The translations under genes and the position numbers were made by a program. 64,000 nt of DNA from Chiloscyllium plagiosum (taxonomy: Eukaryota): contig NC_057718.1 of NCBI RefSeq assembly GCF_004010195.1, positions 82,052,711 to 82,116,710 on the forward strand, in the 5' to 3' direction. A model generated the notes under the pieces. The model did not search any database. It was given only the letters and a program-made list of their open reading frames with translations, and was not told the origin of the DNA. Positions 17,304-57,151 of this stretch are shown here, in pieces (the first letter of the stretch is position 1; every line of letters begins with the position of its first letter).

Positions 17304-17472
17304 TGATTTGGAGATGCCGGTGTTGGACTGGGGTGTACAAAGTTAAAAATCACACAACACCAGGTTATAGTCCAACATGTTTAATTGGAAGCACACTAGC
17401 TTTCGGAGCAATGCTAGTGTGCTTCCAGTTAAACCTGTTGGACTATAACCTGGTGTTGTGTGATTTTTAACT
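17304..17472. mobile_element. Short PLE-derived fold-back element (60-bp arms)
   Basis: 17341-17400 is the reverse complement of 17413-17472 (2 mismatches). Flanked by ctcatgattta / ctcctgattta. Same termini as the GIY-YIG-bearing element at 28771-31062. Confidence 0.9.
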
Positions 17473-17948
17473 CTCCTGATTTAGGCAATCTTAAAAAAAA
17501 AACTAGAAAGTGCTGGTCACTATCAGCAGTTCAATCAACATCTGTGGAGGGAGCCGCTTGCGAGCTTCAGTTCAGCATGATTGCTGGTGCTTATGCTGCA
17601 GAAACTCAATGTCCCAAATATTGATCAGAATGGTTCCAATCCAGGTGATATGCTGCAGCAGTAAGAGCACTCATGCTTGTGTGCAATTAGTACCATGACT
17701 ACACTCCCTGGTTGCTGTAAAAGATCTTAAAAAAAAAAGGACATTTCCAGATTTTCTGGTCAACATTAATCTTTCAAGTACCACTATCCCATTTTTTTAA
17801 AAAATGCTGTGTGCAAATTAGCTGCAATGTTTCCTACATTGTAATATTGACTGCAACTCTCAAACTGTTTCTTTGAATGTGAAGTGATTTGAGATGTTAT
17901 GAGAACATGAAAAAGACTAAATAAATGCTCCTTCTTATTTTGTTATAG

Positions 17949-18113
17949 CCTGGTCCTCCCATGAGCTACCTCAGCTGCTCAAAGTGTGGAGCAACTAACC
18001 ATCCATATGCTCGTTTCTGTGGAAGCTGCGGCCTTTACCTGGAACCCCCTGTGCGGATGGATTCACACAACAGTACACTTCTTGGTTCTGGCCAATCCAC
18101 AGTTCTGGCGGAG
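17949..18113 (+). CDS. DZANK1: DZANK1 zinc-ribbon exon PGPPMSYLSCSKCGATNHPYARFCGSCGLYLEPPVRMDSHNSTLLGSGQSTVLAE
   Basis: Acceptor ttattttgttatag, donor GAG|gtaggt, 165 nt. Confidence 0.96.
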
Positions 18114-18379
18114 GTAGGTCCTATTAAATAATCCTCATCATCAGCACTGACCAAATTCCTGCGTTTCTTTCTAGCACATTTGAAGCCCAAAACTAACTGC
18201 ATCCCCATATCGATGTCACTCAGGATCGATAGCCCTGCAGAATTGTTTTGTAGTCTTCAAGAATTAAGCTTTAACCCCCAGACCAGTTCTGAAAGCAATC
18301 AGAAAGAAAATGAATGTATTATGTAGTGTTCTTCTCATTATCTTTGAACCCTCTCATTTATAACAAGCTGAACATGAAA

Positions 18380-20235
18380 AGTTCAAAAGGGAAGGAAACA
18401 AAGAGACTATGAGAAGGAACTGGCAGCTAACATAAAAAGGCAATTCAGAAGTCAACTATAGGTATTTCAAAAAAGTAGAGAAGGGAGTAGGGTTGATTAG
18501 ATATTAAAGAGGGATATGGGCATGGAGGCGGCGGGCATGATTGAAACAATAAATGAGTATTTTGCAACAAAACCAAAAAAAAGCTGGAGAAATCCAACAG
18601 GTATGGCTGCTTCTTTAGAGAGAATGACCTGGACTACATCTCCTCCCACCCAGTATCCCACAAGAACTCCATCCTGTTCTCCCAATTCCTCCGCTTCCGT
18701 GTCATCTACTCGGACAAGGAGACATTCCATTCCTAAGCATCCCAGATGTCCACCTATTTCAAACAATGTGCTTTTCTTCCCTCTGTCATTCAGACAACCC
18801 TCCACTGCGCCACCTCCATACCCCGTTCCACTGCTCTAAACCCCCCCATGCAATTAAAACATTGTCCTTGCCTACCAGCCCACTTTTCTCTGTGTCCGAT
18901 GCATCATCCTTAAACACTTCCACCAACTCCAACTAGACACTACCACCAAGAGCATCTTCCCCTCCCCACCCTTCTCTGCCTTCCACAAGGACCATTTCCT
19001 TCACCAGTCCTTGGTTTGCGCCACTCTCCCCACCAACACCTCTGAACCCCCAAGTAGCTTCCCCTGCAACAGGAAAAGGTGCAAGACATGCTGGCACACC
19101 ACCCCCCTCATCCCCACCCAGAAGCCTAAACAGTCCTTCTCGAAGATACAGAGATTCATCTGCCCCTTTTCCAACTTAGTTTACTGCATCAGGTGCTCCC
19201 AATGTGGTCTTCTTGACATCAGGGAGACCAAATGTTAACTTAGGGAATGGTTCACTGAGCATCTCAGCCAGCCCCACAGGGGCTGACCGGACTCCCAGTC
19301 GTCATCCATTTTACTTCCCATTCCCATTCCCTTTCCAACATTACCATCCTTGGCCTCCTCCATTGCCACAACAAATCAAACCGCAAATTGGAGGAATAAC
19401 ACCTCATCTTCCACCTGGGCAGCCTACAGCCCAGAAGGGTCAACACTGAGTTCTCCAATTTTAAATATCCCCCCTTCCCTGCCCCCCCGGCTCCTCCCAG
19501 CCACCTTCCAGATTCATTCCTTCCATTGACCAACAAGGTCATACCCTCTACCTATCTTCTTCACCTAACACCACTTCACCACCCTGCCCTGCAAACCCTT
19601 TTGTCTGCAGCTCCCCTTATATCCACCCCTAGACCTGAAGAAGGGTTAAATCCGAAATGTCGATTTCTCCACATCCTGATGCTACTTGCCTTGCTGTGTT
19701 CTTCCAGCCTCTTGCTTGTCTATCTTGGATTCCAGCATCTGCAGGTTTTTTTTCTCTCTTTAGAGAGAAAGCAGAGTCAACATTTTGGGTCCAGTGACTC
19801 TTCTTCAGAATGCATTCTGAAAGAGTGTCACTGGACCTGCAACATTGACTTTGTTTTCTCTCCACAGATGCTGCCAGAGCTGCTGAATTTCTCCAGCTAT
19901 TTCTGGTTTTATTTCAGTTTTTTTTAGCATCTGCAGTTCTTTTATTTTGTTTGATAAGTACGTTGCATCTGTCTTTGCCAAAGGAGAAGATCCTGTCAAA
20001 CTCATAATGGAAGAGGAGGTCGTTGAGATATTGGATGAATTAAAAATTGATAAAAAGGAGATGTTAGACTGGTTGTATGTAAAGTTGGTAAGACACTTGG
20101 ACTGGACCCAGGTGCATTCAAGGATATTGAGAGAAGTAAAGGTGGAAATTGCAGACGCATTGGCCATCACCTTCCAATCATTTTGATGCAGGAGTGGTAC
20201 CAAAGTATTAGAGAATTGCAAATGCTACATTCTTC
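18380..20235 (+). mobile_element. CR1 ORF2 fragment (18380-18566 and 19950-20235) interrupted by PLE insertions
   Basis: ...MIETINEYFA continues as KYVASVFAKGED...VHSRILREVKVEIADALAITFQS after the insert. Confidence 0.75.
18625..19756 (+). mobile_element. Penelope-like element 3' portion (RT C-terminus and GIY-YIG endonuclease), decayed
   Basis: SFPCNRKRCKTC..., NLVYCIRCSQCGLL.I.ETK. 13-bp TSD tctttagagagaa at 18612-18624 and 19757-19769. Confidence 0.88.
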
Positions 20236-20480
20236 TTGAAAAGAAGTTGGAAGATGATTTGCAGACATTTAATCCCCTGTCCAGGTGACATTGTCAGTGC
20301 TTAGGAGCATCCTGTGAAGCACTGCTGTACTATGTCCTCTGGAATTTATTTGGTTCCGTTCCTGCTGCTTCAGGTTACCAGTTCCGGTCAGTCGTTGCAG
20401 TGGTCAGTATGTCGGGTCTAGATCAATGTGTATTTGATGGAGTCCATGGATGAGTGCCATGCTTCTAGAAATTATCTGGC

Positions 20481-21031
20481 TAGCGAGTTTTGAGAAGATT
20501 TGCAGCTCAGGTTGAGGTTCTGGATGTAGGTGTGCTCGCTGAGCTGGAAGGTTCGTTTTCAGACATTTTGTCACTATACTAGGTAACATCTTCAGTGAGC
20601 CTCCGGATGAAGTACTGGTAGTGTAGCCCACTTACTGCTAGTGTAGCCCCTAATGTGTTTGGGTTTCCTTGGGTCGAAGATGTTATTTCCTGTGGTGACG
20701 TCATTTCCTATGGTGATGTCATTACCTGTTTTTCTCAGGGGGTGGTAAGTGGGATCCAAGTCAATGTGTTTTTGATAGAGTTCAGATTGGAATGCCATGC
20801 TTCTAGGAATTCTCATCCGTGTCTCTGTTTGGCTGGTCCTAGGATGGATGTGTTGTCCCAGTTGAAGTGGAGTCCTTCTTCATCCGTATGTAAGGATACG
20901 AGTGAAAGTGGGTCATGTCTTTTTGTGGCTAGTTGATGTTCATGTATCCTGGTGGCTAATATTCAGCCTGTTTGTCCAATATAAAAATGCCTGAAAAGAA
21001 CCTTGCAGCTCAGTGAGCAACCCTGCATCCA
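20481..21031 (-). mobile_element. Second PLE 3' fragment nested in the element above, with short inverted end
   Basis: 21006-21031 is an inverted copy of 20520-20546. Degenerate TSD aaattatctggct / gaattctctcgct. Decayed hammerhead motif at 20559-20598 (-). Confidence 0.7.
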
Positions 21032-21868
21032 GAATTCTCTCGCTGTCCTCTGTTTAGCTTATCCTAATACTGTTGTGTTGTCTCAGTCAAATTTGTAATC
21101 CTTGTCATCTATGTGTGTGGCTACTAGGGACATCTGGTCATGGCGTTTAGTGGCTAGTTGGTGTGCATGGATGAGGATTGCTAGTTGTCTGCCTGTTTGT
21201 CCTATATGGTGTTTTATGCAGTCTTTGCATGGAATCTAGTAAATTACGTTGGTCTTGCACATGATACGTATTGAGTCTTTTGTTCTTGTTAGTTATTGTC
21301 TGAGCGTGTCTGCCGGTTTATAGGCTGTCATGAATCCGAGTAATTGGAGATGTCTGGCTGTTAGTTCTGCCATTTTTGTTTATGTAAGGTAGTGTGGCTA
21401 GTATATTGGGTCGTGGTATGTCCTCGTTGTGTTGTTTATCTGCTAGGTATCTGCAGTTGAAGTTGTGGGGATATGTGTTCTTGGCAAAGACTTTTTAAAG
21501 GTGTTCTTTTTCTTTATGCAGGGTCCTAATGCAATTTTTCTTGTGTGTATTTGTGTGGTTGCTGTTGTAGTTCAGGATCTGGTCCGTGTGTGTGGCTTTT
21601 CTGTTCGACTTTTGTTGTGCACTCACCGTTCTGTGTTCTTTCTAACATCACATTCAGGAATGGGAGTTAGTTGTTGGTTACCACCTCTCTCATAAACTTG
21701 TTCCCGGTGAGCAGTGTTGATAATCCAGTTTGTGTTCTCAATCTCTGTTCTCTTAATTATTACAAATATGTTGTCAACATATCTGATCCAGAGCTTGGGT
21801 CGGATTTGTGGGAGGGCTGTTGGTTCCAGTTCTTGCATCACTGCTTCTGCTATGAGCCTGGAGATGGG

Positions 21869-22450
21869 TGTTATGGACCAGGCCAGACCCCTCAAAACAT
21901 TTCAAGAAGGTAGCTCAGACCCTAATTTTGCTATTTGACTTAAGCAGGTGTACAGTGGATATTCCATGAAAGAATCAGCTGGTCAAACCATTTAGTTTTA
22001 AACAAAACAGAATCAATTTACACGGTTGCGGAATGAAACACAAAGAACCAAACGCAGAATACCGAATAACTTATCTTATCTGCAAACCCAACAGACTATC
22101 CCAACTTAATGATGCTGTTCCAAAATACTTCAACAATCCCTATTAACGCCAGTTCTTACAGGGGGAGAGAGAGAGAGAGACCCGCAGCCTCTCATCACAT
22201 ACACGCGCACACCCTCTGCTGCTTTACAACCAAACCAGAGAACAGCTCAGCTAGGCAAACTGGCCACTCCTCTTTCATTATACAAGTGTATTTATTAAAC
22301 ATAAAAGCTTTCTGCCTGAGGCAGTATCTGTTAGTTGTCAACGAATTGCCCTAAAATCCATCCAATCACAGATTTTTCAGAACATGTCATTTATCACCTC
22401 TCTGGAAAAAAATTGCCAAGGACAACATAACCTTGTTAAAAGAGCCTACG
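21869..22450 (-). mobile_element. Solo Gypsy LTR, related to the LTR at 8353-8966
   Basis: The reverse complement of 21869-21925 (tagggtctgagctaccttcttgaaatgttttgaggggtctggcctggtccataaca) aligns with 8912-8966. Interrupts the PLE RT motif GxPMGSP. Confidence 0.75.
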
Positions 22451-22758
22451 TGAACTCATAGGCATCCATTAATCTGTTCATACATGTGGCTGTTTAATGT
22501 GAACTGTGTCGTCAAGCACAGGTCTACTAGAATGCTGTCGTTGTTGATAGGTTCCCCGTCGTGTTGTCTGTTCTGTTTGTCCAGGAGGTTGGCTGTTGTC
22601 TCTTTGGCTAGGGTTTTGTCAATTGAGGTAAATAGTACCGTTACATCGAATGACACCATTGCTTCGTCCTTGTCTATGGTTTTGTTCTTGATGTTGTCTA
22701 GGAATTCCTGTGATGATTGTTTGGAGTGTTTCATCCGCTGATAAGATGTTTCAGTTTT

Positions 22759-24946
22759 TAGAGTCATAGAGATGTACAGCATGGAAACAGACCCTGCGGT
22801 CCAACCATCCATGCCAACCAGATATCCCAACCCAATCTAGTCCCACCTGCCAGCACCCGGCCCATATCCCACCAAACCTTTCAAATTCATATACCCATCC
22901 AAATGCCTCTTAAATGTTGCAATTGTACCAACCTCCACCACATCCTCTGGCAACTCATTCCATACACGTACTACCCTCTGCGTGAAAAAGTTGCCCCTTA
23001 GATCTCTCTTATATCTTTCCACTCTCACCCTAAACCTGTGCCCTCTAGTTCTGGACTCCCCGACCCCAGGGAAAAAGACTTTGTCTATTTATCCTATCCA
23101 TGCCCCTCAATTTTGTACACCTCTATAAGGTCACCCCTCAGCCTCCGACGCTCAAGGGAAAAACAGCCCCAGCCTGTTCAGCCTCTCCTTGTAGCTCAGA
23201 TACTCCAACCCTGGTAACATCCTTATATCTTTTCTGAACCCTTTCAAGTTTCACAACATCTTTCCGATAGGAAGGAGACCAGAATTGCACGCAATATTCC
23301 TACAGTGGCCTAACCAATGTCCTGTACAGCCGCAACATGACCTCCCAACTCCTGTACTCAATACTCTGACCAATAAAGGAAAGCATACCAAATACTGCCT
23401 TCACTATCGTATCTACCTTTGACTCCACTTTTCAAGGATCTATGAACCTGCACTCCAAGGTGTCTTTGTTCAGCAACACTCTCTAGGACCTTACCATTAA
23501 GTGCATAAGTCCTGCTAAGATTTGCTTTCCCAAAATGCAGTGCCTTGCGTTTCTCTCAATTAAACTCCATCTGCCACTTCTCAGCCCATTGGCCCATCTG
23601 GTCAAGATCCCGTTGTAATCTGAGGTAACCCTCTTCGCTGTCCACTACACCTCCAATTTTGGTGTCATCTGCAAACTTACTAACTGTACCTCTTATGCTC
23701 GCATCCAAATCATTTACGTAAATGACAAAACGTAGAGGGCGCAGCACCAAAACTTGTGGCACTCCACTGGTCACAGGCCTCCAGTCTGAAAACCAACCCT
23801 CCACCACCACCCTCTGTCTTCTACCTTTGAGCCAGTTCTGTATCCAAATGGNNNNNNNNNNNNNNNNNNNNNNNNNNNNNNNNNNNNNNNNNNNNNNNNN
23901 NNNNNNNNNNNNNNNNNNNNNNNNNNNNNNNNNNNNNNNNNNNNNNNNNNNNNNNNNNNNNNNNNNNNNNNNNNNNNNNNNNNNNNNNNNNNNNNNNNNN
24001 NNNNNNNNNNNNNNNNNNNNNNNNNNNNNNNNNNNNNNNNNNNNNNNNNNNNNNNNNNNNNNNNNNNNNNNNNNNNNNNNNNNNNNNNNNNNNNNNNNNN
24101 NNNNNNNNNNNNNNNNNNNNNNNNNNNNNNNNNNNNNNNNNNNNNNNNNNNNNNNNNNNNNNNNNNNNNNNNNNNNNNNNNNNNNNNNNNNNNNNNNNNN
24201 NNNNNNNNNNNNNNNNNNNNNNNNNNNNNNNNNNNNNNNNNNNNNNNNNNNNNNNNNNNNNNNNNNNNNNNNNNNNNNNNNNNNNNNNNNNNNNNNNNNN
24301 NNNNNNNNNNNNNNNNNNNNNNNNNNNNNNNNNNNNNNNNNNNNTATCTGACATATGCTTCCTTCTTTTTCTTTAACCAAACCCTCAATTTCTTTAGTCA
24401 TCCAGCATTCCCTATACCTACCAGCCTTCCCTTTCACCCTGACAGGAATATACTTTCTCTGGATTCTTGTTATCTCATTTCTGAAGGCTTCCCATTTTCC
24501 AGCCGTCCCTTTACCTGTGAACATCTGCCTCCAATCAGCTTTTGAAAGTTCTTGCCTAATACCGTCAAAATTGGCCTTTCTCCAATTTAGACCTTCAAAT
24601 TTTAAATCTGGGGTCTATTCTTTTCCATCACTATTTTAAAACGGATAGAATTATGGTCGCTGGCCCCAAAGTGCTCCCCCACTGACACCTCAGTCACTTA
24701 CCCTGCCTTATTTCCCAAGAGTAGGTCTAGTTTTGCAACTTCTCTAATAGGTACATCCACATACTGAATCAGAAAATTGTCTTGTACACACTTAAGAAAT
24801 TCCTCTCCATCTAAACCTTTAACACTATGGCAGTCCCAAGTCTGTTTGGAAAGTTAAAATCCCCTACCATAACTACCCTATTATTCTTACAGATAGCTGA
24901 GTTCTCCTTGCAAGTTTGTTTCTCAATTTCCCTCTGACTATTGGGT
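22759..24946 (-). mobile_element. Young CR1 LINE (endonuclease end to 3' UTR) spanning the assembly gap
   Basis: MVGDFNFP, WIQNWLKGRRQRVVVEG, SGVPQ, SKFADDTKIGG, FFTQRVVRVWNELP; (CTATGACT)-type tail. Confidence 0.93.
23852..24345. other. Assembly gap (494 N)
   Basis: Run of N. Confidence 0.99.
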
Positions 24947-25299
24947 TCATTTGCCAGTTTATGCCATGGAATTCTTGGAAGTACCACAATAGGTCGAAGT
25001 GGTATGTCAGTGTACCTTAGGTAATCCATAAAATCTTAGGATGTTGTTGCCTTCTGGCATCATCTTTTGTGGGTCTGTCCAGGTTATCAGTCTGTGTTTT
25101 TTGTAGGTTCTGTAGTGTGCTGTTTATTCTATTGGTTACCTGGGGCATGTGGTCATACTCCCTCTATAGGTTGGTGTCGGTATCTGCAAGTAATTTCTCT
25201 GCTTTTTGAATGTATTCAATCTTGCCCATAATAGCCGTTATTCTGCCTTTACCTGCTGGTAGTAGGATTATGTTCTTATCCTTTTTGAGTGTTTTTAGA

Positions 25300-25780
25300 A
25301 CATATTGGTCACGTATCTCCAGTCAGAAAAATACCATTCCACCACTACTATCTGTCTTCTATGACTAAGCCAGTTCTGTATCCATCTTACCAACTCACCG
25401 CAGATCCCATATGGCTTCATCTTGCCATGAGGGATCAACCTGCCATGAGGGATCATGTCAAAGGCCTTTCTAAAATCCTTAACGACAATATCTACTACCC
25501 TGCTCTCATCAATCATCTATGTCAGTTTCTCAAAAAAAATCTGTCAAGTTTGTGGGACTATCATTGATAAGTCCAAATATTTCCAAATGTCAGTAAATCC
25601 TATGCCTAAGAATCTTCTCCAATAATTTCTCTACCACGGATGTAAGGCTCACCAGTCTGTAATTTCCTGGAATATCCCTGTTGCCCCTTTTAAACAAAGG
25701 AACAACATTGGCTATTCTCAAGTCCTTTGGGACCTTTCTTGTGACTAAAGAGGATATAAAGACAAGGTAACAGAGAAGGT
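25300..25780 (-). mobile_element. CR1 RT fragment
   Basis: ANVVPLFKRGNRDIPGNYRLVSLTSVV, DFRKAFDMIPHGRL. Confidence 0.88.
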
Positions 25781-28498: not shown

Positions 28499-30508
28499 GT
28501 GCGTAATGTTGCTTATATGCTTGAAATCCAAACGTATCTAGGATACAGCATCCAGTTTAAGCAGACCCTACTTAACATACTACAATTCTATCATGTCCAA
28601 TAACAATCACTGAGTCAACATAGGTGTGGCAACAGTAACATTGTTTTAGCTGCGATGCATTCATTTTAGCATAAAAGACCTTGCTTACATGTACACAGCA
28701 GAGGTAAATGTACTTCCTGTGTTTACTGACTGAACAGACAGCTTCCACATTTAAATAACCAAGACAGTAAAGATTTTCAGGTGCCGGTGTTGGAACGGGC
28801 TGTACAAAGTTAAAAATCACATGACACCTAGTTGTAGGCTATCAGGTTTATTTGTAAGCACTAGCTTTTGGAACACTGCTCCTTCATCAGGTGGTCGTGG
28901 AGTATAAGATCGTAAGACACAGGATTTAAAGCAAAAGTTTACAGTGTGATGTAACTGAAATTATATATTGAAAAAGACCTAGATAGTTTGTTGAGTCTCT
29001 CATCTTTTAGAATGAACATGTTCATTTCGGTTCTTTCATATGTAAATTCCAGAACTTTTTTAAAGTTACATTCTCAAGTGAACTTTAACAATAGGTGCCA
29101 TGTTGGCCCAGATAGTGCATTGAAGGTGTGAGGCTGTCTGTGCCACAATGTTCAGACTGTCTCTAATCTAAAAAAGGGCTTTACAGAATCTTATGTGGAT
29201 TCATGCAGTTTTTGAGCAAAATAAAATGTAATTCTGCAAGTACAAATTCGCCCCACAAACTTTGTGTGTGTGTGTGTGTGTGTGTGGTGCAATGGTGTCA
29301 CCTGCAGTGTGACATGAATCCAAGGTCCCTATTGAGGCCATCCCCATGGGTACCGAACTTGGCTATCAGCCTCTGCTCAGACACTTTGCATTGTTGCCTG
29401 TCCCGAAGTCCACACTGGGGGATGATCACCTGAAGGTCTGAGGTTGAATGTCCTGGACCACTGAAGTGTTCTCCGACGGGGAGGGAGCAATCCTGTCTGT
29501 TGATTGTTGTGCGGTGTGCATTTATCCATTGCCATATCCTCTGCTCAGTCTCACCAAAGTACCATGCCTCAGGGCATCCTTGCCTGCAGTGTATCAGATA
29601 AACAACGTTGGCCGAGTCATATGAGTACCTGCCACTTACATGGTGGGTGGTGTCCCCACATGTAATGGTGATATCCGTGTCGACACTGACACATCTCAGA
29701 CGCTGCAAGATGTGTCAGTGTCAACAAGGATACCACCATCATACGTGGGGACACCACCCACCATGTGCGTGGCAGGTACTGATGTGACTTGGCCAGTCAA
29801 GGATGCCTTGAGGCATGATACAGCAACGGATAACGGATGAATGGATACTGCACAACAATCAACAGACAGGATTGTTCCCTCCCAATCGGAGAACACTTCA
29901 GCGCTCCGGGACATTCGACCTCAGACTTTTGGGTGACCATCCTCCAATACAGACTTTGGGACAGGCAACAAAGCAAAGTGACCGAGCAGAGGCTCGTAGC
30001 CATGTTTGGTATCCATGTGATTGGCGTCAACCAGGACCTTGGGTTTATGTCACACTACAGGTGAACACACACACACCCTACAGACCCACGAGCACCCACT
30101 CACAGACTTATAACCGTTTACACTCACACTCACATACATATGCATTCACACTCTCTCATAGACCCACATACACCCTCGTGCGCAGACACCCACATGCGCG
30201 TACACACACACAGACACTCATACCCCCCTCGCGTGCACGCACCGACATGTACGCACACACATATAAGTTTGTGGGGTGAATTTGTACTTGTAGAATTTCA
30301 TTTTATTTTGCTCAAAAACTGCATGAATCCATATAAGATTCTGTAAATCCCTTATTTAGTCAGTCTGAACATTGGGGCACAGACAGCCTCACACAAGACA
30401 CCTCACACCTTAAGTGCATTATCTGGACCAGCATGGCACCTATTGTTAAAGTTCACTTGAGAATGTAACTTTAAGAAAGTTCTGGAATTTACAAATGAAA
30501 GAACGGAA

Positions 30509-30812
30509 ATTAGATTACTTACAGTGTGGAAACAGGCCCTTGGGGCCAACAAGTTCACACCGACCCGCCGAAGCGCAACCCACCCATACCCACTCCCCTA
30601 CATTTACCCATTCACCTAACACTACGGGCAATTTAGCAGGGCCAATTCACCTAACCTGCACATCTTTGGACTGTGGGAGGAAACCGGGGCATCTGGAGAA
30701 AACCCACGCAGACACAGGGAGAATGTGCAAACTCCACACAGTCAGTCGCCTGAGGCCGAAATTGAACCCCGGTCTCTGTCGCTGTGAGGCAGCAGCGCTA
30801 ACCACTGTGCCA
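30509..30812 (-). mobile_element. HE1-type tRNA-derived SINE inserted in the right arm of the fold-back
   Basis: Reverse complement begins GGCACAGTGGTTAGCGCTGCTGCCTCACAGC, B-box GGTTCAATTTC; absent from the left arm. Confidence 0.9.
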
Positions 30813-30975
30813 TCACTCTAACTCTAACCCTAACCCTCGCCCTCGCCCTATGAACATGTTCATTCTAAAAGATGACAGACTCAACAAACAATCCAGGTCT
30901 TTTTCAATATATAATTTCAGTTATATCACACTGTAAACTTTTGCTATAAATTCTGTGTCTTGCGATCCTATACTC

Positions 30976-31010
30976 CACCTGATGAAGGAGCGGCGCTCCG
31001 AAAGCTTGTG
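30976..31010 (+). ncRNA. Minimal hammerhead ribozyme motif (PLE type)
   Basis: CAC-CTGATGA-A-GGAGC(ggc)GCTCC-GAAA-GCTT-GTG. Confidence 0.7.
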
Positions 31011-31498
31011 CTTCCAAATAAACCTGTTGGACTAAAACCTGGTATTGCGTAATTTTTAACTTAAGACAGTAAGAAGCTCTATGATCAAAAATGATTGCCC
31101 ACTCTATATCTTTCATCTCATTATTTTTCTATAATGCAGAAAACATCATTCAAGTTTACGATCATAGCCAGCACTGTATATTGTGCATTTTTGAAACTAA
31201 TCAGAAATGCACCTAGCCACATGCCTTCCAGTTGGCCACATGTCGCTTTGCTGTAAGCTAAGTGTAGCTGATGACTAATGTATTTAGCAACACAGCTCTA
31301 CTTTTTACAGTTTCTGCTCCACTGATGCAAAGGCATTGTTAAGAATGGAGACACTAAGCTTGTGAAATTCTAATGACCAAATGTAATGGAATTACAGTAC
31401 AGTAAACATTCAAGAAACAGTGCTACTTGCAATTACTGAGTGACTAGAACTGGATGGCCTCCACTAAAGCTCGAGTTCAGATAGGGTAATGTTTAAAA

Positions 31499-32380
31499 CA
31501 GTGTGGTGCTGGAAAAGCACAGCAGGTCAGGCAGCATCCGAGGAGGAGGAGAGTTGGGCATGGACGTGACGAGGGAGTCGCGGAGGGAACAGTCTTTACA
31601 GAAAATGGATAAGGGTGGGGAGGGAAATATATCTCTGGTGGTGGGGTCCGTTTGTAGGTGGCGGAAATGGCTGAGGATGATGCGATGTATACGGAGGTTC
31701 GTGGGGTGGAAGGTGAGGACCAGGGGGATTCTGTCCTTGTTGCGGTTAGAGGGCTGGAGTTCGAGGGCGAAAGCGCAGGAAGTGGATGAGATGAGCTGGA
31801 GGGCACCATCAACCACGTGGGAGGGGAAATTGTGGTGATTAAAGAAAGATGCCATCTAGTGTTTTCTGTGGTGGAACTGGTCCTCCTGGGAGCAAATGCG
31901 GAGGAGGCGGAGGAATTGGGAATAAACTGTATATTGGGAATTGGGAATAAGGTGGCGCCAATGCAGTCATCAATGTAGTGGAGAAAGAGGTGGGAAATGG
32001 TGCTGGTGTAACTGCAGAAGATGGACCGTTCCACATACCGACAAAGAGACAGGCATAACTAGGCCCCATGCGGGTGCCCATGGCTCCCTCTTGCGTCTGG
32101 AGGAAGTGGGGGGATTCAAAGGAGAAATTTTTGTGGGTGAGAACCAGTTCAGCCAAATGAATAAGATTGTCAGTGGAAGGGTACTGGCAGGGATGTCGAG
32201 AGAGGGAAAAACAGAGGGCTTGGAGACCGTGGTCATGGCGGATGGATGTGACTAGGACGGGATGTCCATGGTGAAGATAAGGCATTGGGGGCCAGGGAAG
32301 CAAAAGTCTTGAAGGAGGTGGAGCACGAGGTGGTGTCTCAAATGTATGTATGGAGTGCCTGGACTGGGGGATAGGACAGT
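31499..32380 (-). mobile_element. Penelope-like element RT fragment
   Basis: LAELVLTHKNFSF..FLQTQEGAMGTRMGPSYACLFVG, FLHYIDDCIG, RIPLVLTFHP. Confidence 0.9.
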
Positions 32381-32409
32381 ACTCCTGGTGAACAGTTGGT
32401 GTAGACTAT

Positions 32410-39694: not shown

Positions 39695-39708
39695 CCACCA
39701 GAGGGCAG
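39695..39708 (+). promoter_or_regulatory. Candidate CTCF site CCACCAGAGGGCAG
   Basis: Exact fit to consensus CCASYAGRKGGCRS in non-repeat-looking sequence. Confidence 0.5.
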
Positions 39709-42986: not shown

Positions 42987-43733
42987 AGTTAAAAATCACA
43001 CAACACCAGGTTATAGTCCAACAGGTTTAATTGGAAGCACACTAGCTTTCGGAGCGATGCTCCTTCATCAGGTGATAGTGGAGGGCTCGATCGTAACACA
43101 GAATTTATAGCAAAAATTTGCAGTGTGATGTAACTGAAATTATACATTGAAAAATTGATTGTCTGTTAAGCCTTTCATCTGTTAGAATACAGTGATAGTT
43201 TCACTTCTTTCATGTGTAAATCACAAAACCTTTTTTTTAAAGTTGCATTTCGGGTTAGCTGTTAACAATGGTGATAGCTAGACAATATGTTCAACATATT
43301 GTCCAGATATCACCATTGTTAACAGCTAACCCGAGAAAGTTGCATTCTCGGGTTAGCTGTTAACAATGGTGATAGCTAGACAATATGTTCAACATATTGT
43401 CCAGATATCACCATTGTTAACAGCTAACCCGAGAATGCAACTTTAAAAAAAAGGGTTTTGTGATTTACACATGAAAGAAGTGAAACTATCACTGCATTCT
43501 AACAGATGAAAGGCTTAACAGACAATTAATTTTTCAATGTATAATTTCAGTTACATCACACTGCAAATTTTTGCTATAAATTTGTGTTACGATCGAGCCC
43601 TCCACTATCACCTGATGAAGGAGCATCGCTCCGAAAGCTAGTGTGCTTCCAATTAAACCTGTTGGACTATAACCTGGTGTTGTGTGATTTTTAACTTTGT
43701 ACACCCCCGTCCAACGCTGGCATCTCCAAATCA
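42987..43733. mobile_element. PLE-derived near-perfect palindrome with duplicated palindromic core
   Basis: Arms of ~250-300 bp are near-identical reverse complements. Perfect 12-bp TSD ttgtattaacat at 42975-42986 and 43734-43745. Confidence 0.95.
43609..43643 (+). ncRNA. Minimal type I hammerhead ribozyme motif (PLE type); mirror copy on - at 43040-43074
   Basis: CAC-CTGATGA-A-GGAGC(atc)GCTCC-GAAA-GCTA-GTG: intact core, stem II, CAC/GTG stem I, palindromic AGCT in place of stem III. Confidence 0.75.
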
Positions 43734-44550
43734 TTGTATTAACATGTTTAATATGTTTATTTTTAAACGGCAAAATGTGCATAATCAAGGGATTAAAGTG
43801 GAAAAACTGGAAATAATTCTATTGTTCTGAATTAACATGAATATACCTTTAAGTTTCATCTATTTCCTTAAAGGCATATAAGCTGTACGTAGATTTTCCA
43901 CTGAGATGTTGGCTGCTGGAATGATTGGGGGTTTAGAAAACCTTACTGTTCCTGGAGCAAATCATACATGATAGTTTAGCAATTTTGTCAAAAGTTGCTG
44001 ACTAATTAGTATTTGTGAAAAGTTAACCTAAATAAAATTTCCAGTCAAAATAGACAAACTGTATTTCAACCTGTTAGGCATGATTGGACATGAATCAAGT
44101 GTTCAGAAACTCTTTAACATAATTGCCTTTTCATGTTTGTCTTAGGTCTTTTTCAATGCCATTTAACATTTTAAACTCAAATTTAAATATTATTATAAAA
44201 AACATTTTTAAGTGAACTGTTTAAAGATTATCCATGCTGCTGACACAAGAAATTATTGTCAAAAAATGCAATGTATACCTGAATTGGTAATATTGAAAAT
44301 AGTGCTGATGGATAGAGTCATGTGCTTTAGTTCTTGCATAAATAATGAGATGATTTCTGGGTCAGGAACCCAGAAGCAAGAGTAGAAGACCTTCTGTCTG
44401 AATTTTTCCACTACATGTCCAATTCTTCACTTCTTTTCTATCATTTTGCAACCTTCTTAACCGTCTCTTGCTATCTCTCTGCTGATAACCCTCTGTGCAT
44501 CTCTTGAGATATGTTGCGTAAAGAAAACTCATCAAGTAGCCTCCTGGTTA

Positions 44551-44905: not shown

Positions 44906-45049
44906 TGCTTCTTATCCATTTATTTATGTTAACAAGACATTGACATGTGTGAGCTGTTGTGGAGGATTCATTAGCAACATGGCCTTTATGCAAACTTGAC
45001 TGATGGATAATGACACCATTATTTGCCCTTAATAATGTTTCCACACCAG

Positions 45050-46060
45050 GCTTGTGACCAATGGTGTTCCACAGGGATTGGAATGGGATCCAGTTTTGTT
45101 AGTCATTTATACAAATGATTTGGATGTGAAGGCGTGGTTAGTAAGTTTTCAGATGACACCAAAACTGGTGGTCTACTGGACAGTGAAGAAGCTTATCTAA
45201 GATTACAAAGAGATCTTGATCAATTGCGTCAATGGGCTGTGGGGTGGCAGATGGATTTTAATTTGAATAAATGTGAGATATTGCATTTTGGTAAACCAAA
45301 CAAGGGGAGGACATATACAATTAATGGTGGGACTGTAGATAATGTTGTCGAGCAGAGAGCCCTAGGGGTTCAGGTACATAATTCGTTGAAATTTGCATCA
45401 CACATAGGCAGGGTGGTTAAGAATGCATTCAGCACCTTCATTGCTCAGACCTTTGAGTACTGGAGTTTGGGTGTCATTGAGGTTGTACAGGACATTGGTG
45501 AAGCCTCTTCTGGCACAACATGTGCAGTTCTGGTCGCCCTGTTATAGGAAGAAAATTATTAAACTGGAGAGGGTTCAGAAAAGATTTATCTTAATGTTGC
45601 CAGGAATGAAGGGTTTGAGATATAAAAATAGATGGGAAAGGCTGGGACCTTTTTAACTGGAGTGTACAAGGTTGAGGGGTGACCTCATTGAGGTTTATAA
45701 AATCATGAGTGGCATAGATAAGGTGAATGACATCCTAGGGTCTTTTCCCCAGGATGGGGGTGTTCAAAACAAGGGGGCATATTTTTAAGGTGAGAGGCGA
45801 AAGTTTTAAAAAGGACATGAAGGAGCAACAGTTTTACACAGATAGTGGTTCATGTGCAGAATGAACTGCCAGAAAAAATGTTAGATGTAGGTACAGTTAC
45901 AATGTTTCAAAGACATTCAGATAAGTTCATGAATAAGAAAGGTTTGGCGGGTCATGGGCCATGCGCAGTCAGGTGGGATTAGTTTAGTTTGGGAACATGG
46001 TCAGCATGGACTGGTTGGACCAAACAGTCTGTTTCCATGCTGTATGATTCTATGACTCTA
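45050..46060 (+). mobile_element. CR1 RT to 3' end
   Basis: SKFSDDTKTGG..LQRDLDQL..W...WQMDFN..KC..LHFG; VQFWSPCYRK.IIKLERVQKRF. Confidence 0.92.
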
Positions 46061-46517
46061 TACCTTCCACCACTTGCCCATTCAGACCCCTGTGATGGCA
46101 TTATTATTCTTAACATAAAACTACAGCTTATCTGCCACCTGCTCCCCCATCACCACCACCTTCCTCTGGCAGCTTCTCCTTTAAACATCTCACTTTGATC
46201 CACCATTCTTCCCTCAACTTTAAATTCCTCAATCATTACTGCCTACCCAAGTATCACACCGCATTTCATACCGAGATATCTTCAATGCTATCCTCAGCCA
46301 TTCTCTGCACTGATGTTTCACCCGTAATGATTTCAGTTTCCATCCTGTCTTGTTCTTCTTTGAGTTCACTGTCTTCCTATCTTCCCAACCCATGACATTG
46401 CAGATTGTGTTGGAGTACAAGTCTGCTGCTGTTGGTGGTCCACAGTGCCTTTTGGATTCCCAATCTTGAGTTGCCAGGTCTGTTCAAATGCTGTCCCATT
46501 TAACATGGTAATAATAG

Positions 46518-46729
46518 GAGAAAGTGAAGACTGCAGATGCTGGAGATCAAAGTCAAGAGTGTGGTGCTGGAAAAGCACAGCAGGTCAGGCAGCATCTGAG
46601 GAGCAGGAGAATCAACGTTTCTGGCATAAGCCTGATTCATTTCCGATGAAGGGCTTATGCCTGAAACATTGATTCTCCTGCTCCTCGGATACTGCCTGAC
46701 CTGCTGCGCTTTTCCAGCACCACACTCTC
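46518..46729. mobile_element. Short PLE-derived fold-back element
   Basis: 46556-46631 inverted at 46651-46729. Degenerate TSD aacatggtaata / aacatagtgata. Confidence 0.88.
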
Positions 46730-48446
46730 AAACATAGTGATAGAGCCACACAACATGATGAAGTGTATTCTGGATATAAAGGTACTGTCATGGACAGATG
46801 CATCTACAGCCGGCAGATTATAAAGATGAGGTCAATTTGTTTTTCTCTCTTCCCTCACCATCTGCCACAGACTCAGTCTTGCTGCTATGTCCTTTAGGAC
46901 CTGACTAGCTTGATTAGTAATGCTGTTACTGGCCCACTCTTGATGTTTGACATTGAAATCCCCCACCCAGAGTACATTTTTCATCCTTGTCACCTTCAGT
47001 GCTTCCTCCAAGTGTTGTTCAATATGGAGGAAGGCTGGTTGTAGTATTTGGCAGGAGGTTTTTTTTTTGCCAATGTTTACCCTGAAGCCTTCCTGCGCCT
47101 AATCCAAATTGCTTTTCTGTTTAACTCAAAAAAATGTTTCTCCCAAATCACGTACTTTCAAATTCCTTACAGTCTTAACTTTTGCTCCTCTACTCACAAT
47201 GACATATGCGGCTAATCTCGCACTATTAATATCTCATTCTCCATTAAAATCATTAGTGTCTCTCACCCTGGTTGTTTCCCGGTATGATCCACATCTTAGG
47301 TCCTCAAGATTCAGGCTTGAATGTTTATGGTGAAGGACTAGTTTAGTCATTAATCACCAGATCTCGTTGTCAGTTTGCGCTTTCCATTACCAAAACTGGT
47401 TGTTTATTGGGGATCATTCTGAACTGGAACATTGCTCCACTGCCCCTAATTTGTCACATGGTCTTGTCCTTTATTCTGCCTTGAATGATTAGACATTTCC
47501 TATAGTCTGCAATGACCAATTACATTATCTACAGTCCCCTCTAAAATACTATTCCTTAGTCACAGACTCCATTCCTCTTCCTGCCCACACTCTGGGACTG
47601 AGTGTTGCAAGATGAGTCCTCATAACAGCTTGCCATGTTGCATGAGCTGTCTAGTAGAGTTGATGGTACCGGCCTTTGGTAAGGATGTTCAGGGAGTACT
47701 TGGTTTAATGTGGAAAAGGAGAGCCACTCGGTAGTCGAATGAGAAGAAGCTCTTAAATAGTAGTTTATTGCAAGATTGCAAGTATGTTCTAGTTACATTG
47801 ATATGATAGTTTCTGTAATAATATCTATAAGGAAGAACAAGATAGTAGATCTTACCTCTTCCAATCTTTGGTTGTTCTCCTGGCCACATCCCTGTGATTT
47901 TATCACAGTAGTTAGCATTTAAAATACTGCTCAGCATTAGCGCTTTCAGACCCTTACATCCTTATACAAAACTGAGTTTCAGATTTTATATTCTGTCCAT
48001 TATCAATGCAATCTACTCACACCTCCAAGTCATCACCTGTCTTCTCCTGTGCTTAACTCACTGCTGCTGAAGCTTTATCCACCTTTTCCCTCGCAATCTG
48101 ACAATACCAATATGCTCCTGGCTGGTACCCTCTGTAAAATTGGGATTCTTTAAAATTCACCATCCACTCTCATTCACCCCAAATCTTTGCACTCGCTAAC
48201 CTGCTTTTGCTCCTGTGGTCATCTTCATTTAGTGTCTCCATGGGCTTATCCCACCCTGTCTTTGTGTTCTCCTTCAGCCTGATAATCTTCTGAGAACTCT
48301 GCATTCTTAAACTTTGGCCAGCTGAAGATTGTGATTTGAGTCATTTCACTGTGGCAGATGTGCTGAGGCCTAAAGCTCTGGAGTTCCCTTCCCAAATCTC
48401 TGCATATCTATCCATCTCTCCTCCTTTCAGCTATTACTTCAAATCC

Positions 48447-48628
48447 ATTCCTTTGACTTTGGTCACCTCTAGTAATATCTCCTGGCCGGTGATGGTCAAA
48501 GCTCTAGCATCATCTGTTTGCTTTTATTTTCCAATCTATTCCTTTGACTTTGGTCACCTCTAGTAATATCTCCTGGCAGGTGATGGTCAAAGCTCTAGCG
48601 TCATCTGTTTGCTTTTATTTTCCAATCT
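48447..48628 (+). repeat. Tandem duplication, 2 x 91 bp
   Basis: attcctttgactttggtcacctctagtaatatctcctggc...ccaatct repeated with 2 mismatches. Confidence 0.92.
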
Positions 48629-48967
48629 CATTCTTTAGTCATTTAATCCACATAATCATTATCCCATAGATGATCGTGTATTTTATCTTCTTGTTGACAA
48701 ATGGGTTTGAATTTATTTCACAGCCTGGATAAACATAAAAAGAGCAAAAGACTGCAGGAAAGGAAATCTGAAATAAAGAAACAGAAGCTGAAAGTGCTGG
48801 AAAAATCCAGCAGGTCAGGCAGCATTTGTGGCAAGTGGAACAGCTAATGTTTCAATTCTAATGTAATTTCGTTGCAAGGTTTGTACTCAACCTCTAGCAC
48901 TGGATAAGCAGAGGATTTCTCTATTTAAATGTGGAGAAGGTGTAACCTGTCATTTTCATTAGGTAAA

Positions 48968-49435
48968 CATGAGGACTGCAGATGCAGTTTAGATCAGAAT
49001 GGTGCTGAAAAAGCACAGCAGTTCAGGCAGCTTCCCTTCATCAGGAATAGAAGCAGGAAGCCTCCAGGGTGGAGAGTTAAAATAGGTGAATGGGGGTAGG
49101 GATGAAGATGATAGGTCAGAGGGTGGAGTGGATAGGGGGAAGGGAGATTGGCAGGTAGGACAGGTCATGAGGCCAGTGCTGAGCTGGAAGGTTGGAATTG
49201 GAGTAAGGTGGTGGAGGGGAAATGAGGAAACTGGTGATGTCCACATTGATGCCCTGGGGTTGAAGTGTTCCGAGGCAGAAGATGAGGCGTTCTTCCTCCA
49301 GGTGTCGTGTGGTGAGGGAGTGGTGGTGGAGGATGCCCAGGACCTGCATGTCCTCAGCAGAGTGGGAGGGGGAGTTGAAATGTTGGGCCATGGGCAGTGG
49401 GGTTGATTGGTGCGGGTGTCCCGGAGATGTTCATC
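48968..49435 (-). mobile_element. PLE 3' fragment (endonuclease C-terminus and terminal repeat)
   Basis: AQHFNSPSHSAEDMQVLG...LEEERLIF.LGTLQPQGINVD. Confidence 0.88.
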
Positions 49436-49830
49436 CTTAGCTACTGGCTCATTCCCACTTCCTGGCACAAACTGAGACTAAACCAGTTTGTTCACCAGCT
49501 TAGAGCAGATTTTACCCATGAGCTTTGGGACCCTGTTCGTGGGGTTAAATAGGGGTTTGGGTCCATTCTGTGTCGAGACATAATTGGCTTTAATTTTCCC
49601 TAAATTGGCCAATGAAGGCCAGAGGATGGATTTTCCATCCAAGTAAGGATGACAGGTGGGCTCTCTGATCTGGATAATTCATTAAAAAGCAGGCAGCCCT
49701 TAATGGTAAGTGACAGAGAGAGGGCTCCCAGAATAGATGCTCACTCTCCCTAACTTTAACCATAAAGGAAAGCATCATCCAAGCCATCACTACAAATGGT
49801 GAATCTGCCACTGTCAGACCCACCTCAAAG

Positions 49831-50020
49831 CAGAGTCAAAAGGTGTGGCGTTGAAAAAGCACAGCAGGTCAGGCAGCATCCGATGAGCAGGAGAGTCGAC
49901 TTTTCTGGCATAAGCCCTTCATCAGGAATATGCCCAAATTGTCAACTCTCCTGCTCCTCTGATGCTGCCTGACCTGCTGTACTTTTCCAGCGCCACACTT
50001 TTTAACTTTGATCTGCAGTC
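49831..50020. mobile_element. Short PLE-derived fold-back element
   Basis: 49831-49911 inverted at 49930-50010, same family as 46518-46729; no clear TSD. Confidence 0.85.
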
Positions 50021-52482
50021 ATAGAGTCATAGTGTTGCCCAATACATTCAGGAATCTGATGGTCCACTCAGGCAGCCTTTTTAGGGCGTTAACGAGGAGA
50101 ATTAGCTACTCGTCACTTTAACCCTGCCATCCCACCCCCATCCTATCTCTTTAAATAAAGTGGCTTCTGGATAGGGTGATGCCAGGAAATTGGTATGATG
50201 TCTGCCAGCATAAATGTATGCACTCACCTCACTATGAACTCACCCCATCAGGGCATAAAAGTGCAATATTTGATGTATAATGACTCCAATATAACCTTAT
50301 AACCACCTATTCACCCTTCTTTACGCCTCCGAAACATTACTCGACATTGTCCCTGTCACAACTTATTTGTGCTGAAATCCTCACCCAAGCCTTTGTTGCA
50401 TCTGGACTATTTCATTCCTGGTTGGTCTCGTACATTGTATCCCCTCTAAACCGGAAGTCATACAAGATTTTTCTATTTGTGTCATTCTTATCAATTCCCA
50501 TTTGCCTATTACCCCTGTGCTCATGCATCTGCAACAGCTCCCATTAAGTAACATCTTGTTTTTAAAATTCCCATTCTTATTTTCAAAGCCACCCAGGACC
50601 TCATTCTTCCCTGAACTTAAAATCTCTGCCAAAGCCATAGCCCTGTGGAATACCTGAATTCCTCAAATCTAGATCACTCAAACTTGATTTTAATATCTCC
50701 ACCATTGCTGACTGTGTCTTCAGTTGCATTGGCCTTAAAATCTAGATTGTCTCCTCACCTCTGCTTGTCTACCATGCCTTTGTCCTTTAACACATGCCTT
50801 AAAACCATCCTCTTTCCCCAATATTTTGGTGATCTGACCTCTGTGATTGTGTCATGTTATATTTTGTAGCACTCCTGTAAAGCGCCTTGGGACGTTACAT
50901 TAAAGGTGCTACATAACTTGAATTGTTATTGTAATTTCATCTTTTGAACTTCCCAGTGTGCCCTTTGAAACTGTCTACGCAGTGATCTCTGTGATGCCAA
51001 AGTGCATCATTCCAGAGCTGCCCAGTTCCTGAGCTCTGGAATTCTCTCCCTAAACATCTCCTCTCCTTTATCTTCAGTTGCTCTTTTGAGACACTCTTTA
51101 ATACTCTGAAGGTTTTAGTACTAATGTTTCTTTGTGTGGAAAGTGCCAAATGTTGTTAAATTATGTTCTTGTGAAGTATCCTAGGCTGTTTAAGGTGTTA
51201 CGTAGACATAAGCTGTCATTTTTAATACACATTTTTTATTTTTTTTAGATGTTGACTTTACTAAGTTTCAGCTCTTATGCTAATTCATTTGTCAGGTTTA
51301 TTGCTGAGAGGGGAGTGCTGGAAAAGCACAGCAGGTCAGGGGTTGGAGGGAAGGTAGTTGAGAATTCGATAGGTAGAATTGAACTCAACTCTGCACACCT
51401 TGACACCATTCTGTCCTCCTTAGTCCAGAAACTCTCCACCTATGTTCGGGACACCACCCGCGCCCTTCACCACCTCCAAGACTTTAGTTTCCCTGGCACC
51501 TAATGCCTCATCTTCACCATGGACATCCAGTCTCTGTACACATCCATCCGCCACGATGAAGGTCTCCAAGCCATCTGTTGCTTCCTCTCTCACTGTCCCA
51601 ACCAGTGCCCTTCCACCGATACCCTCATCCACCTGGCTCATCTAGCCCTCACCCATAACAACTTCTCCTTCCAATCCTCCCACTTCCTCCAAACCAAAGG
51701 AATAGCCCGTGGGCACCTGACCCAGCTATGCCTGTCTCTTTGTCAGGTACATGCAACAGTCCATCTTCCACAGCTACCTTGGCGCCACTCCCCACCTGTT
51801 CCTCCATTACATCAATGTCTGTATCGGCAATATCTTGTGCTCCCATAATGAGATTGAACAGTTCATCAACTTCACTAACACCTTTCACCCTGACCTCAAA
51901 TTCATCTGCACCATTTCGGACACCTCCCTCCCCTTCCTCGACATTTCCATCTTTGGCGACCAACTAACCATGGACATCTACTACAAGCCCACTGACTCAC
52001 ACAGCCACTAACACTTCACCTCCTCTCACCCTGCCTCCTGTGAAAACACCATCCCTTATTCCCAATTCCTCCGCCTCTGCCGCATTTGTTCCCAGGAGGA
52101 CCAATTCCACCTTCTTCCAAGATAGCAATTTCCCTTCTCTCATGGTTGATGATGCCCGCCAGCACATCTCCTCCTCTTCCCACACCTCCGTCCTTTCAAT
52201 GCAACAAGGACAGAATTCCCCTGGTCCTCACCTTCCATCCCACAAACCTCTGTGTACATCGCATCATCCTCTGCCACTTCCGCATCTACAAATGGGCCCC
52301 ACCACCAGAGATATATTTCCCTCCCCATCCCATCAACATTTCCTCCGCGACTCCCTTGTCAAATCCACACCCCGTGCCAGCCCACACCCCACTCCCGGCA
52401 CCTTGCCCTGCCACCACAGGAAGTGCAAAACCTGTGCCCACACCCTCTCCCTCACCTCCATCCAAGGCCCCAAAGGATCCTT

Positions 52483-52692
52483 GAGGAGAAAGTGAGGTCT
52501 GCAGATGCTGGAGATCAGAGCTGAAAATGTGTTGCTGGAAAAGCGCAGCAGGTCAGGCAGCATCCAGGGAACAGGAGAATCGACGTTTCGGGCATAAGCC
52601 CTTCTTCAGGAAGGGCTTGTGCCCGAAACGTTGATTCTCCTGTTCCCTGGGTGCTGCCTGACCTGCTGCGCTTTTCCAGCAACACATTTTCA
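52483..52692. mobile_element. Short PLE fold-back element nested in a PLE of the same family
   Basis: 52520-52604 inverted at 52610-52694. Perfect 16-bp TSD gccccaaaggatcctt at 52467-52482 and 52693-52708. Confidence 0.93.
52577..52612 (-). ncRNA. Minimal hammerhead ribozyme motif of a second PLE family
   Basis: Reverse complement TTC-CTGAAGA-A-GGGC(ttat)GCCC-GAAA-CGTC-GATTC, with ACGT palindrome and GUC triplet. Confidence 0.7.
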
Positions 52693-53393
52693 GCCCCAAA
52701 GGATCCTTCCACATCCGACAGAAATGTACCTGTATTTCCATAATGTCATCTACTGTAACTGTTGCACCCAATGTGGTCACCTCTGCATCAGGGAGATGGG
52801 ACACCAACTTGTAAATCGTTACAGAGAACATCTGCACAAACGAACCCCACCACCCTGTGGCTGAACACTTCAACTCCCCCTCCCACTCTGCCAAGGACAT
52901 GCAGGTCCTGGGCCTTCCCCATCACCAAACCCTTACCATCTGACACCTGGAGGAAAAACACCTCATATTCTGCCTTGGGGCCCTGCAATCACATGGGATC
53001 AATGTGGACCAGTTTCCTCATTTCCCCTCCCCCCACATTATTCGAGTCCCAAGCCTCCAATTCGGCACCGCCCTCCTGACCTGTCCATCATCTTTCCCAT
53101 CTATTCACTCCACCCTCCTCTCTGACCTATCACCCTCTCCTCCACCTTCATCTACCTATTGCATTCTCAGCTACCTTCTCCCCAGCCCCATCCCCCTCCC
53201 ATTTATCTCTCAGCCCTTCCAGCCCACAAGCCTCATTCCCAATGAAGGGGCTTATGCCTGATTCTCCTGCTCCTTGAATGCTGCCTGAACTTTTCCAGCA
53301 CCACACTCTGATCTCCAGCATCTGCAGTCCTCACTTTCTCCTCAGGTTTATTGCTGCCAGTCACGACACCCAGCTTGGGAACATGTCAGCTAA

Positions 53394-57150: not shown

Positions 57151-57151
57151 T

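Follow-up and report, generated by a model that had tools for sequence, protein, structure and literature searches.

The longer arm of short two-armed Penelope-like insertions in a shark genome tends to stop just in front of a hammerhead ribozyme motif

A typical insertion of a Penelope-like element (PLE) contains an inverted truncated copy, a tail of 30-40 bp at one end and complex junctions (PMC8557442, PMC8969392). Rotifer PLEs show palindromic junctions and duplications of 8-10 bp, which have been ascribed to self-priming (PMC3846280). In vitro, the protein of PAc, a Poseidon element of Anolis, nicks and extends both target strands, and two internal start sites bracket the tail; insertion proceeds normally when its ribozyme is mutated, and the main substrate is uncut RNA (PMC11167929). 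PLE promoters sit in the terminal repeat (PMC2377424, PMC6765202), and how internal priming near the RNA start leads to full-length copies, tandems and inverted ends is stated to be open (PMC11167929, PMC8557442). Here, we analysed a 64,000-nt window of the shark Chiloscyllium plagiosum (NC_057718.1 in GCF_004010195.1, forward strand), in which PLE-derived inserts are built of two head-to-head arms and the short ones fold at or beside a hammerhead motif.

The hairpin inserts are real, and they are the smallest form of a PLE insertion pattern that has already been described. As in the canonical unit of endonuclease-positive PLEs, the arms stand head-to-head with a one-sided tail, a target duplication and palindromic junctions (PMC8557442, PMC3846280), and the inverted 5'-truncated arm, the one-sided tail of 30-40 nt and the duplication that characterize that pattern all occur among the window inserts. 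Because this architecture is published, the system is not new. It departs from the canonical unit in that an insert can consist of the two terminal arms alone (170-210 bp) and in the presence of ten two-armed inserts within 64 kb, and its duplications are 10-16 bp long as against 8-10 bp in rotifers (PMC3846280). The noteworthy detail is that the longer arm tends to end immediately before the ribozyme instead of at the cut site, probably at the start of the copied RNA. A fixed stop of this kind was not found in the passages of PMC8557442 and PMC3846280, and a literature survey at the level of titles, abstract openings and term counts returned nothing on shark hairpin stubs, a pre-hammerhead stop or a PLE strong-stop transfer; older PLE papers, Repbase or Dfam may cover the stubs. 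We read the inserts as one-off products of Neptune-type PLE insertion whose stop marks the transcript 5' end, not as a separate mobile family, with a probability of about 0.6.

Inserts are named below by their first coordinate, and element positions are counted from C3, the C of the CUGA core, as 0. Five are short hairpins (17304, 18568, 46518, 49831 and 52483) and two are long (28771 and 42987). An earlier note on this DNA had listed these seven as separate inserts; inverted repeats are present at all seven places, but 18568-19945 is a hairpin split by a second PLE, which has an exact 13-bp duplication of its own (18612-18624 / 19757-19769). With three further inserts (20482-21032, 31491-32400 and 51308-53343), in each of which a short inverted arm without a tail is combined with a long partner, the number of two-armed inserts rises to ten, and because these partners are long, the short hairpins represent one end of a size range. 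Alignment bore out the proposed division of the seven into three sequence families: A (17304, 28771 and 42987), B (46518, 49831 and 52483) and D (18568/19757).

The arms of the short hairpins measure 56-87 nt and are 79-96% complementary, those of 42987 are identical at 300 of 307 positions, and those of 28771 are 84% alike in the coding part and 91% in the untranslated region (UTR). The tail is confined to one arm, in agreement with the earlier claim that only one arm has the full 3' end. It is 36-37 nt long in family A (3/3) and about 39 nt in family B (46518 and 52483), and in 49831 it is internally deleted, leaving about 10 nt net. The 3' side therefore shows two fixed ends 36-39 nt apart, the tail-less one being constant in all three window copies of family A. 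A difference at 1 of 60 positions separates the arms of 52483, against 7-15 of 60 to the other family B copies compared, and the arm lengths of 42987 agree within 1 nt at -220. Private differences common to both arms, together with arm lengths equal to 1 nt, suggest that both arms probably derive from one template end or from a snap-back, two routes that the final DNA cannot separate. RNA editing and strand-biased mutation were ruled out as sources of the arm divergence in 28771, as the changes are symmetric transitions.

The PLE origin of the arms is supported by protein comparison. On translation, the long arm of 28771 gives a GIY-YIG C-terminus, for which the top match is a Chiloscyllium punctatum protein (76% identity, E 5e-56). 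Shark homologues of the window arms match RVT_1 and then GIY-YIG, the domain order of PLEs, and also match other long copies in the window by tblastn. The translation of 29298-29714 (-) shows a feature of endonuclease-positive PLEs that is defined in PMC8557442. The window holds no intact open reading frame, and none of five window translations gave a relevant Pfam match (0/5). A C-x4-CxxC linker is present in the translations of 18858-19238 and 51968-52495 and in the family A homologues. A C-x2-5-CxxC linker between reverse transcriptase (RT) and endonuclease is a Neptune trait that is common to Nematis and Naiad (PMC8557442), and the inserts are putatively assigned to Neptune-type PLEs by this motif, which the other two groups share. 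PAc belongs to another clade, in contrast to the shark elements with their C-x4-CxxC linker (PMC11167929).

Exact target duplications flank three of the seven inserts (10 bp at 28771, 12 bp at 42987 and 16 bp at 52483), and imperfect ones flank two more, namely 17304, with an 11-bp repeat matching at 10/11 positions (17293-17303 / 17473-17483), and 46518, whose repeat has two transitions and a 3-nt slip. To this extent most inserts are bounded by direct repeats of 10-16 bp, as had been stated, but 18568 has only a 7-bp flanking repeat and at 49831 no flanking duplication was found. In the larger inserts, an exact 15-bp duplication surrounds 51308-53343, a 12-bp repeat with 2 mismatches surrounds 20482-21032 (20470-20481 / 21033-21044), and none was found at 31491-32400. 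In a control for exact repeats with 2935 random position pairs, a repeat of at least 10 bp occurred in 1 pair and one of at least 7 bp in 16.

We described the minimal hammerhead as a CUGANGA core, a bulge, stem II, GAAA-NN-UH and a short stem I. Five window arms match this descriptor, four of them with a stem I of at least 2 bp, compared with 1 hit in 30 simulated windows. The hammerhead motif is thus genuine, as the earlier note had proposed, while self-cleavage is predicted from the sequence. A search of Rfam gave no hammerhead match at E up to 1 and 22 sub-threshold hits overall. The new 5' end produced by cleavage would lie at +29 for family A, +28 for family B and, by alignment, about +30 for family D. 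The motif resembles the minimal hammerheads of PLEs in its CUGANGA, bulged base, stem II, GAAA and 2-nt palindromic loop III, and those ribozymes are mostly solo (PMC4209133). As in PAc, it lies about 100 nt upstream of the RT start sites (PMC11167929). Among the arms of the short hairpins, only the left arm of 52483 retains the full motif. Schistosoma has pairs of hammerheads on opposite strands 100-700 bp apart (PMC4209133), whereas the paired shark arms abut at a distance of 0-11 nt and the full core is usually confined to one of them.

On the 5' side, the longer arm of four of the five short hairpins ends between -3 and -6 (-4, -6, -4 and -3), which by this tally covers two of the three families; the exception is 17304 (Table 1). 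In a post hoc simulation, four of five ends fall within a 4-nt window with a chance of 0.004 if the range is 60 nt and of 0.011 if it is 40 nt. The apex had been claimed to lie in or at the edge of a CTGANGA...GAAA motif, and it does so in all five short hairpins; the claim is partly circular, since a short hairpin has no choice but to fold close to the motif, whereas the position of the longer arm's end escapes this circularity. Both long hairpins have their fold far upstream, at -220/-221 in 42987 and at about -806 (left arm) in 28771, and folds away from the motif are therefore common too. That copying ends at the ribozyme holds as a statement of position, but the arms cross the cut site and stop 3-6 nt before the core. 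Nine of the ten short arms run at least 14 nt 5' past the predicted cut site, so cleaved RNA was not the usual template. A 5' end of the RNA probably fits a stop 3-6 nt before the core better than self-cleavage does. All seven junctions in the window differ from one another.

Evidence from outside the window comprises one protein search and public sequencing runs mapped on one family A arm (43392-43770). Contigs of two DNA runs from two species (X1 and X9) were mapped, as were 3758 reads of an RNA run (X21), a poly(A) single-cell library; a second RNA run (X22) gave 0 mapped reads. The contigs represent near-symmetric apices poorly, and the joints reported here are the best 15 of 92 by support, concern family A only and have incomplete counts in X1. 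Loose ends with random flanks pile up at 43695-43698 in both species (551 and 669 in X1, 655 and 742 in X9). Ten of these joints are strand switches, two of which fall entirely within the 3' ends and were excluded. Among the eight in the head region, seven have one side at 43607-43612 (-5 to 0) and the eighth has one at +5; the other side spans +32 to +61, with 15 contigs in X1 and 14 in X9. Clustering of seven of eight at -5 to 0 has a simulated chance of 3.5e-5 over 60 nt, and the 215 nt upstream of -5 contain no side of any of the ten strand-switch joints. A head-to-tail joint likewise restarts at -2 (43695 to 43610).

These results are consistent with the following route. The element protein would nick both target strands 10-16 nt apart, and both 3' ends would prime complementary DNA (cDNA) on the element RNA, one at the distal start site, giving the tailed arm, and the other at the proximal site, 36-39 nt nearer, giving the tail-less arm. 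Each cDNA would be antisense, so the product would be head-to-head, its 3' ends facing out. Joining, presumably over an overlap of 0-3 nt, would then involve either the ends of both cDNAs or a single cDNA that snaps back. If transcription begins within the terminal repeat, a few bases short of the hammerhead, copying would run off after 90-130 nt and the run-off at the RNA 5' end would place the fold at the front edge of the motif; a template broken further upstream would place it at the break. Priming on both strands would give the geometry observed, i.e. antisense left, sense right and one tail, all within a duplication, and we infer that the recurring stop at -6 to 0 is the transcript 5' end. 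That the inserts formed during insertion through both nicked strands or a template switch, as proposed earlier, is supported by their anatomy, by the distinct junctions and by PAc (PMC11167929). PAc likewise has two start sites bracketing the tail, uses both strands and can dispense with cleavage, and the passages on it describe neither hairpin products nor a 5' stop and leave later steps open (PMC11167929).

A TATA-like box lies upstream of the family A boundary and an initiator-like TCATT at the family B boundary, as would suit transcript starts. The family A spacing exceeds the usual one for a TATA box by 2-4 nt. Several other points also weigh against a transcript start as the source of the stop and against our account of the arms. 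The boundary base varies among families (T, A and C), the longer arm of 17304 stops at +10 within stem II, and its right arm starts 1-4 nt from the predicted cut site. The arms of 49831 (7/60 differences) and 28771 (12/52) are hardly nearer to each other than to other copies, and two of the seven inserts (18568 and 49831) are without a clear duplication. Choosing joints by support favours recurring positions, and we infer the head-to-head orientation of the contig joints. In the poly(A) library X21 there was no site with many read starts or ends, the predicted cut site included, and no transcript 5' end, and no poly(A) signal was seen in family B. A rise in RNA depth near 43600 was considered as a start site and dropped, since the first mates extend some 80 nt back from the poly(A) site. 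The aligned copies of families A and B have no AG at the boundary, which likewise rules out a splice acceptor there; a Drosophila element has a splice acceptor at the corresponding boundary (PMC4209133).

The main rival keeps the same insertion chemistry and lets the stop be set by the ribozyme fold or a bound protein, through RT stalling or snap-back, or by a 5'-to-3' nuclease that trims the RNA to a protected motif. We regard it as doubtful, although it would explain why in three families the boundary, regardless of its base, follows stem I at its 5' edge, and why junction overlaps draw on complementary bases within the motif (GCT, GAA). In PAc, the ribozyme is assisted by protein (PMC11167929), and self-priming has been proposed for palindromic junctions (PMC3846280). 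However, a polymerase moving 3' to 5' would presumably have unwound the motif before reaching its front edge, local folds are no stabler than those of shuffled sequences in five of five segments (z -1.03 to 0.74), and the overlaps are only 0-3 nt.

Later shortening of long palindromic insertions by central deletion is an unlikely origin of the short hairpins. Long palindromes are unstable, the junction overlaps are short, and the apex of 42987 has undergone a 100-bp rearrangement. Microhomology deletions do occur in PLE copies (PMC3846280). Deletion nevertheless does not explain why, in three families, one side stops at -6 to 0; a tandem joint that is not palindromic starts at the same place, and the two long hairpins survive with spacers of 1 and 11 nt.

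We consider it very unlikely that the hairpins form a self-propagating non-autonomous family, copied as a unit in the manner of miniature inverted-repeat transposable elements (MITEs) or retrozymes, although the earlier note had raised a self-propagating hairpin RNA class. Some joints recur across contigs and in both species, such as 43608/43654 with 6 contigs in X1 and 4 in X9. Among the best 15 of 92 joints of family A, the strongest has a summed depth of 97.7 against about 18 for single-copy flank, i.e. about five loci, which a one-sided hotspot could explain. In the window, the recurrence of identical apex junctions, which would mark an amplifying family, was not observed at any of the seven inserts, the three family B hairpins are 7-15/60 apart, and the full motif is kept in just one short-hairpin arm. 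As junctions differ between copies and the top joint reaches about five copies, a self-amplifying hairpin class is unsupported. MITEs are short, with long terminal inverted repeats and a target duplication, and the shark stubs resemble them in these respects. They are unlike MITEs in their unequal ends, variable 10-16 bp duplications, non-recurring centres and continuity with RT/GIY-YIG copies; many copies sharing one internal junction and symmetric ends were not found in the window or among the best 15 of 92 family A joints. Retrozymes of the non-LTR type (LTR, long terminal repeat) are also PLE-derived, hammerhead-bearing and non-coding, and occur in the sole cartilaginous fish sampled, but they are head-to-tail tandems with a ribozyme in each unit, while the shark inserts are head-to-head and dispersed with unique junctions (bioRxiv 10.64898/2026.07.22.740005). 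Head-to-tail units each with a complete hammerhead were not found among the inserts, as most arms are without the full core.

That the arms end at the self-cleavage site on a cleaved RNA template is largely refuted and hardly credible, for although the right arm of 17304 starts close to the predicted cut and one joint side (best 15 of 92) lies at +32, 3 nt past it, nearly all short arms cross the site, the recurring stop falls about 33 nt further upstream, and in PAc a mutated ribozyme leaves insertion normal and uncut RNA serves as the main substrate (PMC11167929).

If the stop is the transcript 5' end, the boundary before the hammerhead, together with a family A poly(A) site between hammerhead and priming sites, suggests a strong-stop-like step. 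In RNA run X21, A-runs follow 43669 (442 reads) and 43672 (539 reads), together 981 of the 3758 mapped reads, and they start 12-15 nt behind the poly(A) hexamer. Tentatively, the PLE terminal repeat may act like a retroviral U3-R-U5, with the short hairpins as failed strong-stop-like transfers from both primed strands. The promoter would start the RNA just before the hammerhead, and poly(A) would be added about 60 nt past the core. Since both RT start sites lie beyond the poly(A) site, a mature unit transcript would have them only near its 5' end, so copying would have to run off and transfer to the 3' end, where the hammerhead region is repeated; a series of such jumps could build pseudo-LTRs and tandems. 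If this is true, the short hairpins are a genomic record of a missing step in PLE transposition.

A genome with abundant short two-armed inserts and a sharp stop provides data on how PLEs complete their copies. Such stubs can pass for MITEs or microRNA precursors, and 21 of the sub-threshold Rfam hits were microRNA hits on stubs. The family A end also furnishes transcripts with working poly(A) sites: the A-run reads may be host transcripts using the family A signal, and its many copies may accordingly terminate host transcripts.

Table 1. Two-armed PLE inserts and associated features in the window (positions relative to C3 carry a sign)
Coordinates	Strand	Feature	Details
17304-17472		Family A short hairpin	Left arm antisense, 37-nt tail (17304-17340), to +10; right arm sense, without tail, from +25; 3-nt junction overlap at 17413-17415
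18568-19945		Family D short hairpin	Both arms from -4, apex 19812/19813, spacer 0, overlap 0; left arm split
18625-19756	+	Single-arm 5'-truncated PLE nested in the D hairpin	C-x4-CxxC linker, endonuclease remnant, 3' UTR and tail; hammerhead core at 19635 (+); from tblastn to shark PLE proteins and descriptor match
20482-21032		Family E two-armed insertion	Long tailed antisense arm, core at 20595; short sense arm without tail from ~20985, within the GAAA part of the motif; absent from the earlier note
28771-31062		Family A long hairpin, older	Arms extend into the part coding for GIY-YIG; spacer of 11 nt (29697-29707); hammerhead cores 28890 (-) and 30979 (+); right arm holds a later insertion like a short interspersed element (~30511-30849)
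31491-32400		Family B two-armed insert	Short tail-less antisense arm (31491-31556) stops before the motif, joined to internal PLE coding sequence
42987-43733		Family A medium hairpin, young	Arm ends -220/-221, 1-nt spacer; cores at 43071 (-) and 43612 (+); tail 43697-43733
43575-43581	+	TATA-like box, family A	33 nt upstream of the -4 boundary; putative promoter element
43652-43657	+	Poly(A) signal	Poly(A) addition sites ~43669-43672; within terminal repeat, upstream of both 3' ends
46518-46729		Family B short hairpin	Left arm with tail, ending at +9 (46632); 4 extra nt, overlap 0; right arm without tail from -6 (46637); core decayed
49831-50020		Family B short hairpin	Right arm begins at +13, left arm ends at -4 (49929); overlap of 1 nt
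51308-53343		Family B classic insertion	Tail-less inverted arm of 33-38 nt at left and long 5'-truncated sense copy; sense copy runs from RT to endonuclease remnant, decayed motif ~53240 and tail (tblastn-supported)
52483-52692		Family B short hairpin inside the 51308 element	Tailed left arm to -3, intact minimal hammerhead, core 52609 (-); right arm without tail from +5; 3-nt overlap at 52610-52612

Further observations concern individual copies. At the apex of 42987, a 100-bp tandem duplication (99% identical; 43239-43337 / 43336-43435) creates two apices, and it may be a true re-copying event or an assembly artefact. The two arms of 28771 differ in a CA-rich stretch of the 3' UTR (30065-30250), which spans about 190 nt on the right and about 35 nt on the left. 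PLE copies are inserted in PLE copies in two clear cases and a probable third within the 64 kb (18625-19756, 52483-52692 and 20482-21032), which suggests a target preference for PLE sequence. DNA depth is about tenfold higher at 43665-43690 than upstream in both species; this is no measure of copy number and was not used. Family A endonuclease sequence also lies inside annotated shark proteins (a PPP1R12A-like protein, septin 5a and a 7TM-domain protein), where it may represent exonised fragments or gene-model errors. Searched with either terminal pattern, the viral collection gave 0 matches; 81 metagenome matches were treated as chance, since BLAST at 5 loci gave 24-28 nt only and none longer.

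Elsewhere in the window, 22456-22836 (-) holds a further RT fragment without a Pfam match, which we take to be PLE-like and which is unlike families A and B. An assembly gap of 493 N at 23852-24344 falls within a copy of a long interspersed element (LINE). At 55763-57155, two LINE 3' ends of about 970 and 400 bp, presumably CR1-like, stand head-to-head; they are 68% alike and have the same terminal bases, and they may be two neighbouring insertions or a LINE fold-back product.

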